Part shown: piece by piece, positions 1-6,000 of the stretch
How the letters are laid out: every line of letters begins with the position of its first letter
How positions within the stretch are numbered: the stretch's first letter is position 1
Assembly (NCBI GenBank): GCA_963806035.1
Contig: CAWDWO010000007.1
Span: 1-64,000, forward strand
Length of the DNA: 64,000 nucleotides
Direction: 5' to 3'
Source: Candidatus Krumholzibacteriota bacterium
Lineage (GTDB): Bacteria; Krumholzibacteriota; Krumholzibacteriia; JAJRXK01
Made by a program: the position numbers

Positions 1-3000
1 TGCCGCACGCCCGAGGGATCCAGATAGAGGGTGACGTTCTCTTCTTCCCCGGTGTCGGGATTCAGGCGCGTTTCCACGCGGGTACGCCGTACCGCGATCG
101 CCCGGTTCTCGCTGTAGCTTCCCGTGAACTGGAGATCCGGCTTCAGCCAGCCAATCCCCGGGAAGAGCGGCGTGTAGTTGGCGCTGAAGCGCTCGGTGTG
201 GCCGTTCTCGGCCCCCCAGTTGATCCCCAAAAAATCTACCTTCTGTTCGCCGATCACCAGGCCGGTGTCATCGACGATCAACCGATTGCGAGCCGGATCA
301 CGCACCGAGTTGATGCTGTACAAGAGTCTCAGATTGCGCGCGGGTGACCAGGTGACCGAAGAACTGTTGGACACCACTCGCCGCGAGGTTCCCGTGAGTT
401 GGAAGCTTCCATCCTCGAACTTGTTGGTGATCTTGTTCTCATCCTTGGACCACACGCTGCCCAGGGAGATCTGGTTGGGCAGATAGCGGAAATCGTAACC
501 AAGCAGCGGGATCTTCATGATCGAACGCGTGGCGAAGTTCAGATCGTAGTTGTACTGGGACTTGCTGCTGAGCCGCCGTGTGTTTTGCCGGGGCGAACGT
601 CGCCGGCTCCGGGTCAAGCTGTAGGAATAGGAGAGCCGGTCCACGGTATAGGCGAGGACTTTGTTCTGGCTCGATCCCTGTTTGCGCAATTGGAAGTTGA
701 AGCTCTCGTTACTGTCCTTCGTGGTCAGCGAATCCTGAAGTGCGCTGTCCAAAAGCGTGATGTCATTGTCCGGGTAGTACTTTGGCACGGAGGTACGCTT
801 GGCGGCACTGAAGCTGAAGGGTACGTCCAGGCCGAATGTCGGGATCAGGTTCTGCAGTTTCGAGGAGGCTCGCATCTGCGCGTTCTGGTCCGTCGCGCCG
901 CTTCCCCGGTCGCGGTTCAGGCCCCGGAATTCGGCATCGGTCTCGCTGATCGAACCCGAGAAATCACCCAAGCCCGGAATGTTGGAACTCACGGAGAGCT
1001 GCTTGGCGTAACCCGTTTTGCGATTGACGCGGCGGAGGCGCAGTTCATTGAACAGAACGTCGCCAGTGAGCAAGGGACCCACCGGCACGCCGGTGCCGTC
1101 CGTCGCCTTGGGATACCGCAGACCCGCGTAGTATCTGCGCACGCGCCTCAAGTCGGGCCGGCCGCGGATCACCAGGTCGTAGATGCTCCCACTCAAATTG
1201 TCATGAATCGTTCCCTGCCGAATGACTTCGCCCGAGGGTAGAGTCACGTTGCGCGCAACGCTGTCATCCACCTTGGCGCTGGTCATCTTGTCGATGGGTA
1301 CCTGTACCTCGACCCATCCGGTGTTCGGATCCACCTCGACCTGATCGAAGGGAAAGGAGATTTCGTAGTAGTTGAGAGAGTCCGTACCCACCCAGAAGAA
1401 GGGCACCAGGCCCTGCTGGTCGGGATCGAGCTGAGCGGGTAATCGAGACGCGAGCGGCGCGCGCCAGAAGAAGTTCAATTCGTTGTACTGGCTGAAGTCC
1501 TGCCCCTGGCTGCCAGGAACGTCCTTGCGCACGCGGATCTCCTGTCCCGGCCCGAGATTGGCGTAGTCCAACTGGAGAGACTGTTCCTTCTCCGCCACGT
1601 TGTTGCGCGTGTCGGGAAACACCGGCGGGATGTAGTCCGGGTTGTCCTTGTTGTTGAGCACTCCCACCCGGAATTCCGCCGGAGCCTCCGCTCCCGCGGG
1701 AAAACGATCGTGGCTCTGCGAGTCGTGGATGCCGTCGGTCAGCCAGCGATTCCCCAAGAAGCGCATCTCCGCGAACTGAATGTCGCGTCTTCCCGTCGAG
1801 CTTCCGCCGGGCACCTCGTACCAGATACGCAGGAAGCGTACTCGGGAGAGATCCGGGGCTTTGGTGAGGTACTTGAACTCGCCCTGGCGCGCGAGTCGCA
1901 ACTGAACCTCCTTCATGTCCAGACGGTACTTGCGCCACGAGTTGTTGACCTTGCGCTCATCGCTCGAGACAAAAGCCGGATAGTCCCGGTTCACGTCCAC
2001 CAGCACGTGATCGGTATCATCGAGAGGCACGGACAGGGTGTAGTAGGCGTCAGCCATGTCCAGGCTACCGTTGAGGTTGATGTCCTCGCTGTCCAGGCGT
2101 TGGTTGAGCTCCAGACCGTTGATGCGCGGAAAAGGATCCGCATCGTCTTCGCGGCTGGAATCGAAATCGTCTCCACCGTGGTCGTCGCTGCGGTCCGGGA
2201 CGTTCAGATAGGGTGGAAGCGGTCCCTCTGCGGCACTCTCCTCGGCGCTGGCGATGCCGTCCAGACCCACGTCCTCGGCCGTACTCAACTGCCCGTCGTT
2301 GTCCGTGTCCTCCTGATCCAGAACTCCCCGCTGCAATACGTTCCTCTGCAGCGCATCGTCGAAGACCGTCTTCCAGTAGAAATCCTCGTTGATGAAGCCG
2401 AAGTCGAAGTGCAGTACGCCTTCGCGATTGGCAACGCTCTTCTGGAAATCGTTGACCCAGAACTCCAGGTACTGTGCTTCGGTGAGATCGAGGTCGGAGC
2501 CGTAGCCGCGCATGATGCCGGTGAACAGGGTGTCGGCGAAAGTCTCGGTTCCCTTGGGAGGTTCCATCTGGAGCTGGAGGGCCGGCACCACGTCGCGCCG
2601 TTCCTGCTCACTGAGATCGGGATTCAGATCCTCGCGGTTCACCGCGGGGGTGGGCCGGTACCAGCGTACGTAGGCGCGGTCCTGCGGCTGAAAGCGACGG
2701 TCGACGTCCGTCTCGTTCGCATACTCCGCCGGGAGACTTGCCCACCACCAGCCCTCGCGACCCATGGGAATCACGTCGCTCTTGTCCACCGCCTCGAAGT
2801 CGTCGAGATAGGCGCTACCGTTGGTGTTCGGATTGGGTATCGAAACCGCGAGTTCCCCGTCGACGGTCAAACGGCTCGGCGTGTCCGAATCGACCATGGG
2901 CAAGAGATTGGCGAGGCTGGTCAGGATCTTGGGTTCGAACTGCAGCTTCGCCGAAACGTTTCCCACCCAGTTCTTGGTGGGTTCCTCGCCCAAGCGCGGC

Positions 3001-6000
3001 TTGCGGTTGTTCGACGGTTTGCTTTGCAGGAGCCAGGTCGTGGAGAGTGTCTTGTTCTGCCCCAGATGGTAGCCGAGGTTGATGCCGTTCAGGCTGGTGC
3101 GCCCTCCTCCAAAGAGGGGGTCCACCTCGAAATCTACCGTGATGTTGGTCTGCGCGTTCAACTCGCTGGCGGCGCCGGTGAGAGTGATTTCCCCGCTGAA
3201 GTAGTCGATGTCGTAATCCACTCCGCGGGTCAGGATCCGGCCGTCCAAACGCACCTGCTCGCTGTTCTCCTTGATGTTGATCGTGCCCAGAGAGAGGCGC
3301 GAGGAAGTCGAAGAGTGCTGGAACTCCAGGTCGAAGAAATGATTGCTCTGCAAGCCGGTGGAGGTGAGGGACTTGAGGTAGAGATCGGGGGCCGGCACCC
3401 CGTCGTTGCCGCCGTTCTCGAACTTTCCGGTCAGATACTTGGCCGCGAACGGCGTCGGATTGGGGAACTCCAAGAGACCCAAATCGGGGAAGACCAGATT
3501 CGCCTCGCTGCCCGTGTCGATGGTTCCGTCTCCCCCCTCGACCGGATTTCCCTGTGGATCGAACTTGTCCAATCCGAAGATGTTGATCCAACGCCTTCGC
3601 GTGCCGTCCGGGGGCACGGTGTCGAACTCGTTGAGAGTCTGCTTTACCGTGGTGAGGATCTGCACGTCGAGGGTGGTGAGATCGATGCCCACGCCGCGCA
3701 TGAAGTAGAAGTTGCGGAACATGTACTCCCAGCACAGATCGTAACCCTGGCCGTAGCTCGACGGATTCGTCGGATCCGGTGCGGCCTGTGAGAGGGGTTT
3801 GATGAGTTTGAAGTAGTAGATCTTGTCGTTGGGGTCGCCGGGGTTGTCGGGATTATCGATTGCATCGAAGTCCCCGCTGAACCAGGGCCGGCCCACCCGC
3901 ATCACCAGATTGCCCTTGTCGTCCACGACGTTGTAGGTCACGCCAAGGGCCACGTTGTCGTCCAGCTCGCTGTTCAGAAGCACGCCGATCAACTGCCCGC
4001 TGTTCGCGTCGACCAGCGGCCGCCACTCTTCGACCCCCAGACGACGCCAACGGGGGGCATCCGTGAAGTCGGTTCGATTGGCCAGGGCGGGGTTCGCGTC
4101 GGGGTCGGGGACTCCGCCGGAATAACCCCAGTAGTAGCCGGTGGTCTCCATGTAGGCCCGGCCCGGGTGAACGTCCAGGATGTCCCCCTTGTCCCCACTC
4201 ACCACGCCGTGGGGAACGCTCACGTAGAGATCGACGGTGGAGACGTCGATCCTCCAGGAGGGGTCCCAGCTTCCGCTCTGGTCCTGGAGGTTGGCCGGAA
4301 TGTCCAGGGTGTCCCCCGGCGCTATGATGTAGGGCTCGCCCTGCACGAAGAAGAAGGGGTAGGGGGCGTTCAGGCGGAAGATCCGGTTCTTCACGTAATC
4401 GGTCGAACTCACGGTGAATTCCTGGGTCGTTCCCCCCGCGGCCGAGAACGAGCGCTTGCCCTGCTTGCTCTGCTCCTTCGAGGTGAGCACGGTGAAGTCC
4501 AAAGGCCCCAGGGCGCCCTCCACCTTGACTCCGAAGAGCCCACCGCGCTGAGCTTGGATACCCAGGAGCCGGGATGAGGGCAGGGTCACGTCGATGTTTC
4601 CGGCGCGAATCGTGCGGATGATGTCGTCCTCATCACCTTCGAAACTCAATTTCACCTGCGTCGCGTCGCTGCCGAACTGCTCGCTGTCGTGACTCACGCG
4701 GACTTTGATCTTCTCGCCCACCTGGCCATCCAGGTTCACCCGCAAACTCTGTTGCATCTCGAGGGTGGGAAAGAGACTCTGCGACTGCTGGATTTCGTTA
4801 CCCAGGAAGTTGTCGCGCACCGTCGAGGTCCCGCTGATCGAGATGCGTTCCTGACCACTGATCCGGATGTTGGTGGCCTCCCCCTTTCCGATCAACCGCT
4901 CCAGGGTGCGCGGCAATTTGATGGGCAGGGTGAAGTTCAAGAGGCCCTGGTTGGCCTGGGTGGCGATCGCGTGCGCCTGCAGGCTCTTGCGCCACTGATC
5001 GTCCAGAGCCACCGTGGTCACGCTCCGCATGTATCCCTGGAGGGTCATCATCCGGATGTCGACCTGCGGATCCTCCACCGGGCGTGGTTTCTCGAAGGCG
5101 ACTCCGACTTGATTGGTGTCGACCTGGCTGAAAAAGAGAAAAGTCTCGGGAAAGCGGTAGCGCACCACTCGATCGAGCCCGTCCTCGGCCTCGAGGACTT
5201 CCACCTGCCGTGGCGGCTGGAAGAGCTGCATCTGCGCCGCGTCGGCGAAGCGCTTGCGCAAAAGCGTGCCCAAGGAAACGCTCTCCCGCGTTCCGCGCGG
5301 ATCGACCCCCATGTCCAGGAGTCTCTGCCGGAGCAGGGCCTCGTGCGCGCTGAGGAGATCGGGGTTGTCGCTGACCCGCAGGATGAGGTCGAAGAGCCAC
5401 TTGTCGCGGGGGTAGCTGGGCCGGCCGAACTCGGCGGCCCGGGCCGAGTTCAGCGCGCAGAGAAGCGTCAGGGCGAGGAATACCAATCGTTTCGGGTTGG
5501 CCAAAGCAGTTGTCGCCTCACGCGTTCTGGAGCTTCAGGATTGATCCCCGCCACGGGCATACCCCAACGACTGTCCCCTCTCAAGGACAAACTCTGACCC
5601 CCAAGGAGGTCATCCGGGGACGGTCTTCAGGCCCCACCCGACGGCTCAGGGTCCATCTCGCCCTCAGAAATCGCGTTCCTCCCGGGAACCGATCGTCGAA
5701 GCGGCAAGTATCGGTTGAGGTGGCATAGAGAGCAACATAGACTCACGCCGCGAGTCCACTTCCCAGGCTGGAAAACCGTCCATGTCCTTGATTGATCGGC
5801 ACATCCTACGGACCTTCTTCCCGCCGTTCTTCTTCGGACTGGTGGTCACTACCTTTATTTTGATGATCGACATTCTGCAAAAGTATGTCGATCTCTTCCT
5901 GGGCAAGGGCATCAGCCTGACACTGGCCAGCGAAGTGTTGCTCTTGAGCCTGGGCCATATTTTTGCACTTACCGTACCAATGGCCATTCTGATCGGGGTT

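Follow-up and report, generated by a model that had tools for sequence, protein, structure and literature searches.

In current models of the T9SS (type IX secretion system), the motor (GldLM/PorLM) and the track (GldKN/PorKN) are held to be essential. [quoted passage not shown] A smaller set is on record for Melioribacter and Ignavibacterium, for which a passage of another report gives only PorV, SprA and Plug (PMC11705866, Microbiol Spectr 2024), and the motor-less pattern is to that extent partly in print already. No discussion of a missing T9SS energy chain was found in the literature.

The window analyzed here is a stretch of 64,000 nucleotides at the start of a contig from a Candidatus Krumholzibacteriota MAG (93.7% completeness, 41 contigs, 2.7 Mb). 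An ORF on the minus strand at positions 3..5504 was found to comprise the first 1834 codons of sprA/sov, the gene for the T9SS outer-membrane translocon. The ORF has a TTG start and encodes 1834 aa; since the first base of the contig falls inside the gene, the frame lacks a 3′ end. The SprA model TIGR04189 matched it in three stretches summing to 560.6 bits (cut-off 200) and covering model positions 39–257, 390–843 and 900–1789 of 2319, and the solved Flavobacterium johnsoniae SprA structure (PDB 6H3I) was matched with an E value of 1.8e-42, so that the first-pass annotation of this ORF as SprA/Sov was borne out. SprA is 2100–2330 aa long in relatives, and the frame in a relative of the same genus is 2328 aa, indicating that ~480 C-terminal residues are missing here. 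On reading the translation, the N terminus looks like a signal peptide. Across the Krumholzibacteriota, SprA scored 450–570 bits on TIGR04189, compared with 2000–2900 bits in Bacteroidia, and the divergence is therefore large.

An lptF-type LPS export permease gene (5782..7149, plus strand; Pfam LptF_LptG 269.5 bits) is transcribed divergently from sprA. Analysis by tblastn showed that an lptF homologue adjoins sprA in 20/20 Krumholzibacteriota loci, and lptF-lptG adjoin sprA in 2/4 loci of the Rhodothermia; the permease is a conserved neighbor of sprA and no part of the T9SS. It is followed by an lptG-type permease at 7161..8222 on the same strand (LptF_LptG 271.7 bits), the ORF of which is listed as 6855–8222 with the Pfam match at ORF residues 103–452. 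Motor genes adjoined sprA in none of the 20 Krumholzibacteriota loci and in none of 18 loci from other lineages.

The remaining outer-membrane components are encoded elsewhere in the genome. The PorU sortase (contig C38, 51125–54775) scored 443.4 bits on NF033707 (cut-off 420) and consists of a Peptidase_C25 domain together with a C-terminal sorting domain (CTD) of its own. The adjoining porV gene (C38, 54851–55843) encodes a PorV carrier that scored 175.8 bits on the family model NF033709 (cut-off 90) and 112.3 bits on the equivalog NF033710, which is under the cut-off of 250. About 10 PorV/PorQ-family barrels and a PorX-like regulator are encoded in the genome. Searching with TIGR04183 gave 49 matches to CTD cargo at E ≤ 0.01, of which 47 exceeded the model's cut-off, and one of these ~47 cargo proteins lies at the far end of the window, where a T9SS type A C-terminal sorting domain (61507..61776, minus strand; TIGR04183 29.3 bits, cut-off 23) terminates a 2857-aa open frame that extends past the window. 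Translocon, carrier, sortase and CTD cargo were thus each found, in agreement with the first-pass annotation, which had described the outer-membrane half of the system as present.

The motor and the track or ring were then a different matter. Searching the genome with GldM TIGR03517 gave no match at E ≤ 10, the top score for GldL TIGR03513 was 14.4 bits (E 0.04), and the sole match to GldK TIGR03525 (88.5 bits) fell in a CTD cargo protein, where it covered the FGE half. PF12080 found no match, and PF22827 (GldL_N) reached its cut-off in 0/10 genomes of the family. HMMs of our own, built from 19–25 Bacteroidia sequences and run unfiltered against 35,472 six-frame ORFs, gave top E values of 1.9 for GldL and 1.0 for GldM and no match at E ≤ 10 for GldN, and a local PorP HMM made from 8 TIGR03519 proteins reached a top E value of 0.16 against the six-frame ORFs. 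Profile–profile comparison by HHsearch, covering 16,545 six-frame ORFs of at least 80 aa, returned top probabilities of 8.6% for GldL, 15% for GldM, 49% for GldN and 53% for PorP (E 2.3). An architecture screen for a protein with a two-helix hairpin followed by a one-helix protein identified no motor pair, the candidates being pilins and antisense ORFs only. Candidates for GldK were rejected as well, their matches being confined to FGE-domain halves, in one CTD cargo protein, in a frame of 964 aa and in an EgtB-like protein of the cytoplasm. Matches to PorW/SprE in this genome were of TPR type and scored at most 47 bits (cut-off 250), and the best match in the genus, at 105 bits, was a YbgF-type TPR protein within a pyr operon; for comparison, Roseithermus scored 286 bits and Flagellimonas 842 bits. 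At the level of sequence, and with profiles built from Bacteroidia, these searches showed that neither a GldL/GldM motor, nor a GldK/GldN track or ring, nor PorP/SprF is detectable; a convincing PorW/SprE was not seen.

A positive control for GldM, which the first-pass annotation lacked, was obtained by recovering the protein in 5/5 named Bacteroidia genomes. The genes at these loci comprised GldL (5/5), GldM (5/5) and full GldN (3/5), and gldL-gldM-gldN were adjoining in all 20 further loci. All 31 genomes of a Bacteroidia-like stratum have GldM and also SprA. The genome search does yield false negatives: PorU was missed by it in 6 genomes listed with GldM, including a named Flagellimonas. 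With the controls working, the undetectability of the PorK/L/M/N and PorP module noted in the first pass was upheld by curated HMMs, unfiltered HMMs and HHsearch alike.

The distribution of these components was followed in 81 Krumholzibacteriota genomes, each with a completeness of at least 90% and five assembled into 1–2 contigs. SprA was present in 81/81, as was PorU at E ≤ 1e-60 (74 over the cut-off). GldM was found in 0/81, and GldL over its cut-off also in 0/81, weak matches of ~20 bits being seen in two genomes. The phylum-wide occurrence of SprA without GldM that had been proposed now stands at 81/81 vs 0/81, and incompleteness of the MAG is therefore no explanation for the missing motor. 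In the Fibrobacterota, SprA and PorU-like proteins were each found in 60/61 genomes and GldM in 0/61. Within a sample of GTDB Bacteroidota, 65 of 121 genomes were SprA-positive and GldM-negative (Rhodothermia and two further strata), and PorU scored over its cut-off in these strata; representatives from Roseithermus, Salinibacter, Rhodothermales, Rhodothermus and Melioribacteraceae gave GldM in 0/5 and GldL over the cut-off in 0/5. The motor-less pattern is common to several FCB lineages and is no peculiarity of the Krumholzibacteriota.

The interpretation of these data that we favor, and to which we give an even chance, is that the SprA at 3–5504 is the translocon of a T9SS made only of the outer-membrane module. 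Cargo would reach the periplasm via Sec, where SprA together with PorV would take up its CTD before the protein crosses the SprA barrel. The PorV–cargo complex would then leave the translocon without a dedicated motor, through diffusion and binding equilibria, and PorU, which removes the CTD and either anchors the cargo or sets it free, would keep the step from running backwards. The reports on CTD proteins of the motor-less F. succinogenes and R. marinus favor this interpretation; the essential energy chain of Bacteroidia, with its energy-requiring ejection of carrier–substrate complexes, speaks against it. That Fibrobacterota, Rhodothermia and other FCB lineages share this composition suggests that a translocon–carrier–sortase module works alone, and that the class Bacteroidia has motor and track as an addition. 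With somewhat less than even confidence, SprA–PorV–PorU could be seen as an older, self-sufficient FCB device for secretion and sorting that GldLM and GldKN joined only in the Bacteroidia, which is the reverse of the proposal that the T9SS arose within the gliding machinery. It had been concluded in the first pass that this lineage must energize its T9SS differently; the absence of the motor stands, while different energization is a further deduction from it, and the T9SS here may be unpowered.

It could be, though we think it unlikely, that a GldLM/GldKN-type chain is present and has diverged, or been swapped for an analogue, so far that sequence profiles no longer recognize it. The Bacteroidia origin of every profile and the low scores of Krumholzibacteriota SprA itself are consistent with this; however, HHsearch gave at most 15% for GldL or GldM across the ORFs of at least 80 aa, PF22827 and PF12080 failed as described, the architecture screen produced no candidate beyond pilins and antisense ORFs, and no conserved membrane gene without an assigned family was seen beside sprA or porU-porV. 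That the motor genes sit in the unassembled 6% of the MAG has a negligible probability: the assembly is incomplete, in 41 contigs, and cuts sprA by a contig end, but the lack of GldM, and of GldL over the cut-off, in 81 genomes of at least 90% completeness effectively refutes it. It is also very improbable that SprA, PorU and PorV serve a role other than CTD-dependent secretion or are a nonfunctional remnant. The pairing of PorV-family barrels with genes resembling TonB-dependent receptors (TBDR) could be taken that way, yet 81/81 genomes retain intact SprA and PorU, with 47 CTD cargo proteins in a 2.7-Mb genome, and CTD processing is reported for motor-less F. succinogenes.

The general TonB-ExbB-ExbD complex is a 5:2 proton motor in which TonB spans the periplasm, and import proceeds via TonB-dependent receptors. 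It is conceivable, at a rather low probability, that this motor powers the T9SS in place of GldLM, with TonB, perhaps together with a GWxTD protein, pulling PorV/PorQ-family barrels off SprA. A barrel of this family (NF033709, 186.5 bits) is encoded directly upstream of GWxTD, ExbB, two ExbD genes and TonB, and the TonB of this cluster carries the only canonical TonB C-terminal domain among the gene calls of the genome. In 20 genomes drawn from across the phylum, tblastn located PorQ, GWxTD and ExbB at 20/20 loci each and TonB at 18/20, the cluster being collinear in 18/20, and a GWxTD orthologue is present in 79/81 Krumholzibacteriota genomes. Against this proposal, the cluster starts with a TBDR-like gene and a CTD protein, and a second TBDR-like gene (contig C41) is likewise followed by a PorV-family barrel. 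Both clear TBDR-like genes in the genome are therefore paired with PorV-family barrels, and the cluster has ordinary clients of its own; moreover, the true PorU–PorV pair and sprA are sited elsewhere, without motor genes. Most simply, the cluster is read as a unit for TonB-dependent uptake that has a surface partner anchored by the T9SS and sits beside its energizer. The linkage of ExbB-ExbD2-TonB to a PorV/PorQ barrel pointed out in the first pass was thus confirmed at 20/20 loci, but a TBDR-like client adjoins the set as well.

Lineages with a translocon, a carrier, a sortase and dozens of cargo proteins, and with no energy chain, bear on the real purpose of the motor. TXSScan requires GldKLMN and reports no T9SS beyond the Bacteroidetes (PMC4793230), and annotation tools with this requirement consequently leave a major route of secretion in the Fibrobacterota, the Krumholzibacteriota and others out of view. 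Culturable motor-less organisms are at hand for tests in Fibrobacter succinogenes, Rhodothermus marinus and Melioribacter roseus.

Compared with the T9SS of Bacteroidia such as F. johnsoniae and P. gingivalis, the Krumholzibacteriota system shares a SprA homologous to 6H3I, a C25-type PorU sortase that itself bears a CTD, PorV as carrier, barrels resembling PorQ, a regulator of the PorX type and cargo with type A CTDs. It differs in that GldL/PorL, GldM/PorM, GldK/PorK, GldN/PorN and PorP/SprF were not detected and no convincing PorW/SprE was seen; in Bacteroidia, these components make up the energy chain behind the ejection of carrier–cargo complexes (PMC12635249). TonB-ExbB-ExbD transport across the outer membrane resembles it in being encoded beside a PorV/PorQ-family barrel (20/20 loci), but is known for import and has a receptor-like gene in the same cluster. 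The Melioribacter/Ignavibacterium set is likewise a translocon without other T9SS proteins in non-Bacteroidia FCB members, although the passage on it gives no PorU and does not take up energization (PMC11705866), whereas PorU is present here in 81/81 genomes. F. succinogenes and R. marinus belong to lineages with SprA and PorU-like genes in which GldM was not found; they differ in being culturable and in belonging to other phyla or classes, and the relevant passages hold no inventory of T9SS components (PMC6851124, PMC6539836). The mature surface enzymes of F. succinogenes are described as lacking the CTD (PMC6851124), and R. marinus Xyn10A is placed among CTD proteins that are cell-anchored or need the CTD in order to be secreted (PMC6539836).

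The translocon gene sprA/sov opens the window on the minus strand, running from 5504 down to 3, and its reading frame has a TTG start, encodes 1834 residues and shows no stop before the contig end. The product was found to match TIGR04189 (SprA/Sov) in three stretches (model positions 39-257, 390-843 and 900-1789 of 2319), totalling 560.6 bits (cut-off 200), and the Flavobacterium johnsoniae SprA structure 6H3I at E 1.8e-42. Since the frame reaches the contig end and relatives in the phylum have a longer SprA (2100-2330 residues; 2328 in a genome of the same genus), about 480 C-terminal residues are missing for assembly reasons.

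The sortase PorU is encoded on contig C38 as a 1216-residue Peptidase_C25 protein with its own C-terminal sorting domain (CTD; NF033707 443 bits, cut-off 420), and is followed by a PorV/PorQ-family barrel of 330 residues (NF033709 176 bits, cut-off 90) and then by an M6-like CTD cargo protein of 1220 residues. The CTD model TIGR04183 gave 49 matches in the genome at E<=0.01, 47 of them above cut-off and one lying in the window at 61507-61776, and jackhmmer returned about 10 PorV-family paralogues. Among the NCBIfam models are a 'putative type IX secretion system sortase PorU2', a 'putative type IX sorting system protein PorV2' and a 'T9SS-dependent M6-like inactivated metalloprotease', to whose family the 1220-residue cargo may belong; these models show that variant type IX sorting sets are already recognised by curators. 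A PorX-like protein was located at C35:48678-49706; its partner PorL, named as such in the title of PMC5005315, is absent. In one stratum of GTDB Bacteroidota, stratum Y, three of four loci (L382, L383 and L385) have a response regulator of PorX type, with receiver and PglZ domains and ~521 residues, directly downstream of sprA.

The motor (GldL, GldM), the track (GldK, GldN) and the PorP/SprF carriers were then sought in the whole genome. The curated GldM model gave no match at E<=10, the curated GldL model reached 14.4 bits and the curated GldK model matched FGE domains only; Pfam GldM_4th had no matches and PF22827 (GldL_N) attained its cut-off in none of 10 genomes of the family (best E 0.1). 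For PorW/SprE, only generic TPR matches were obtained, none of them convincing. The missing positive control of the first-pass annotation was supplied by named Bacteroidia genomes located through a 16S probe: GldM was detected in all five, and their flanking genes comprised GldL in 5/5, GldM in 5/5 and full-length GldN in 3/5; gldL-gldM-gldN were consecutive in 20 of 20 further loci. Negatives of the genome search are not absolute, because it missed PorU in six genomes listed as having GldM, including the named Flagellimonas genome.

Because the genome search applies a first-look filter, HMMs were built from control-genome sequences (19 GldK, 25 GldL, 25 GldM, 23 GldN and 8 PorP/SprF) and run unfiltered on all 35,472 six-frame ORFs of at least 40 residues. 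The best E values were 1.9 for GldL, 1.0 for GldM and 0.16 for PorP; GldN gave nothing at E<=10, and GldK yielded only FGE domains. Profile-profile comparison with HHsearch covered 16,545 ORFs of at least 80 residues (an a3m index copy served for the cs219 index), and here the top probabilities were 8.6% for GldL, 15% for GldM, 49% for GldN, confined to the signal region, and 53% for PorP. Three GldK matches in HHsearch span the FGE half alone (a CTD cargo protein, a 964-residue frame and a cytoplasmic EgtB-like protein), and the GldK-like matches were rejected as real GldK, consisting of FGE domains only; a similar match in a Rhodothermus-like genome was the FGE-sulfatase domain of a sulfatase-linked enzyme. 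The frame at C7:92159-92866, weakly matching both GldL and GldM, looks from its sequence like a coiled-coil lipoprotein. When membrane architecture was screened for a GldL-like hairpin with a single-helix protein like GldM after it, no credible pair emerged; the candidates were antisense ORFs, secreted paralogues and proteins resembling pilins. These local searches close the false-negative gap for this genome. The system is composed of translocon, carrier, sortase and cargo and lacks the energy chain, and the earlier claim of an outer-membrane half without the motor-ring module is confirmed and gains in strength, with SprA, PorU, PorV and 47 CTD proteins above cut-off and the Gld searches negative beside working controls.

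The surroundings of sprA and of porU-porV hold only housekeeping genes (lptFG, an M28-like gene, rimP-nusA-infB, accA and dnaE) and no motor genes, nor were motor genes found beside sprA in 18 loci from Fibrobacterota, Rhodothermia and two other strata. The LPS export permease genes lptF-lptG (window 5782-8222) are divergent from sprA in 20/20 Krumholzibacteriota loci (L162-L181; tblastn, with Pfam for the window genes), and the same divergent pairing was also seen in two of four Rhodothermia loci (L379 and L381). In P. gingivalis, T9SS cargo proteins become attached to LPS, and given this attachment a functional tie between sprA and lptF-lptG is conceivable. The rimP-nusA-infB operon adjoins the sprA region, with nusA present in 18/20 loci by tblastn. 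Directly downstream of sprA, 17 of the 20 loci carry a gene for a secreted, M28-type peptidase-like protein of ~310 residues (L162:13351-14304 and 16 further loci; tblastn), which in the present genome falls outside the window and was lost through the contig break. It has only a weak DapE match in NCBIfam, and its motifs are ones we take to resemble those of glutaminyl cyclases. That likeness, if true, would echo the 'Q-rule' that has been linked to T9SS (PMC5837995).

The phylum was sampled through 81 Krumholzibacteriota genomes, each at least 90% complete; five of these consist of 1-2 contigs. SprA was present in all 81, as was PorU at E<=1e-60 (74 above cut-off), while GldM was found in none and GldL above cut-off in none, two weak matches reaching ~20 bits; incompleteness of the assembly is therefore not the explanation, and the phylum-wide absence proposed in the first-pass annotation is borne out. 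The pattern proved far wider than had been assumed there, extending to Fibrobacterota, Rhodothermia and other Bacteroidota strata. For the GTDB phylum to which Bacteroidia belong, 121 genomes were sampled, with handles that fall in interleaved strata; SprA was detected in 96 and GldM in 31 (30 above cut-off); all 31 also had SprA, leaving 65 with SprA and no GldM, and PorU was above cut-off in the GldM-negative strata. One such stratum is Rhodothermia, as its SprA shares 90-94% identity with Rhodothermus records. Neither GldM nor GldL above cut-off was found in Roseithermus sacchariphilus, Salinibacter altiplanensis, a Rhodothermales chromosome, a Rhodothermus MAG or a Melioribacteraceae MAG (0/5 each); in Roseithermus, PorW/SprE was above cut-off. 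Rhodothermus and Salinibacter were reportedly tabulated by McBride and Zhu in 2013. Among 61 Fibrobacterota genomes, 60 had SprA, 60 a PorU-like protein (24 above cut-off) and none GldM. A locus search with a SprA alignment returned only Krumholzibacteriota records, some labelled Fibrobacteraceae, Latescibacteria or Gemmatimonas; many public MAGs whose SprA is nearest Krumholzibacteriota are likewise titled 'uncultured Fibrobacteraceae', 'Latescibacteria' or 'Gemmatimonas', which look like taxonomy labels lagging behind GTDB.

The energy-requiring step of T9SS is given in PMC12635249 as the ejection of carrier-substrate complexes. How the present system may run is inferred. An outer-membrane-only system that would operate with no dedicated motor is the reading we favour, at roughly even odds. 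It is unlikely that a cryptic motor or analogue drives secretion, as the HMM, HHsearch, architecture and neighbourhood analyses yielded no credible candidate in this genome. Three MotA/ExbB-family genes are present: TolQ in a TolQ-TolR-TolB-Pal set, and the ExbB genes of clusters on C2 and C31. A cluster on C2 (TonB-like, ExbB, ExbD, 480-residue lipoprotein, 409-residue barrel, TPR) was rejected as an analogue of porP-porK-porL-porM, the barrel matching NF053685 BamG at 106.6 bits. Its lipoprotein and FadL-like barrel (L275:4742-10421, directly after TonB-like, ExbB and ExbD and before the TPR protein) fit the BamH-BamG pair known from FCB phyla (PMC12611786), which places a motor set next to BAM accessory genes.

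The most concrete energiser candidate is a PorQ-GWxTD-ExbB-ExbD2-TonB cluster at C31:55000-75000 (locus L273), in which the order is TonB-dependent receptor (TBDR)-like, 928-residue CTD protein, PorV/PorQ barrel, GWxTD, ExbB, ExbD, ExbD, TonB, TolC-like and a second GWxTD; the ExbB has an N-terminal extension of ~140 residues. That TonB-ExbBD powers T9SS in place of GldLM would be consistent with the conservation of this set, which the first-pass annotation had pointed to beside its barrel: tblastn against 20 genomes spread over the phylum (L331-L350) recovered PorQ in 20/20, GWxTD in 20/20, ExbB in 20/20 and TonB in 18/20, with the collinear order in 18/20, and a GWxTD orthologue occurs in 79/81 genomes. 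However, both clear TBDR-like genes of the genome adjoin a PorV-family barrel, the second at C41:12412-16451 with the barrel directly after it, so the cluster is more simply read as a unit for TonB-dependent uptake that has a T9SS-anchored partner, and a role as secretion motor is accordingly improbable. The TBDR and PorV-family pair may be a recurrent unit of the phylum. Other readings share the remaining odds.

In reviews, T9SS is described as Bacteroidetes-specific or, vaguely, as present in the FCB superphylum, and TXSScan, which requires Gld proteins, found it only in Bacteroidetes (PMC4793230). PMC12635249 infers that T9SS first arose within the gliding machinery. The literature searched contained no discussion of T9SS without the energy chain, and a single sentence in PMC11705866 states that Melioribacter and Ignavibacterium have PorV, SprA and Plug without other T9SS proteins. 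The motor-less composition is common to several lineages and barely noted in print. For F. succinogenes (PMC6851124) and R. marinus (PMC6539836), CTD removal or CTD-dependent anchoring is described, which suggests that such motor-less systems function.
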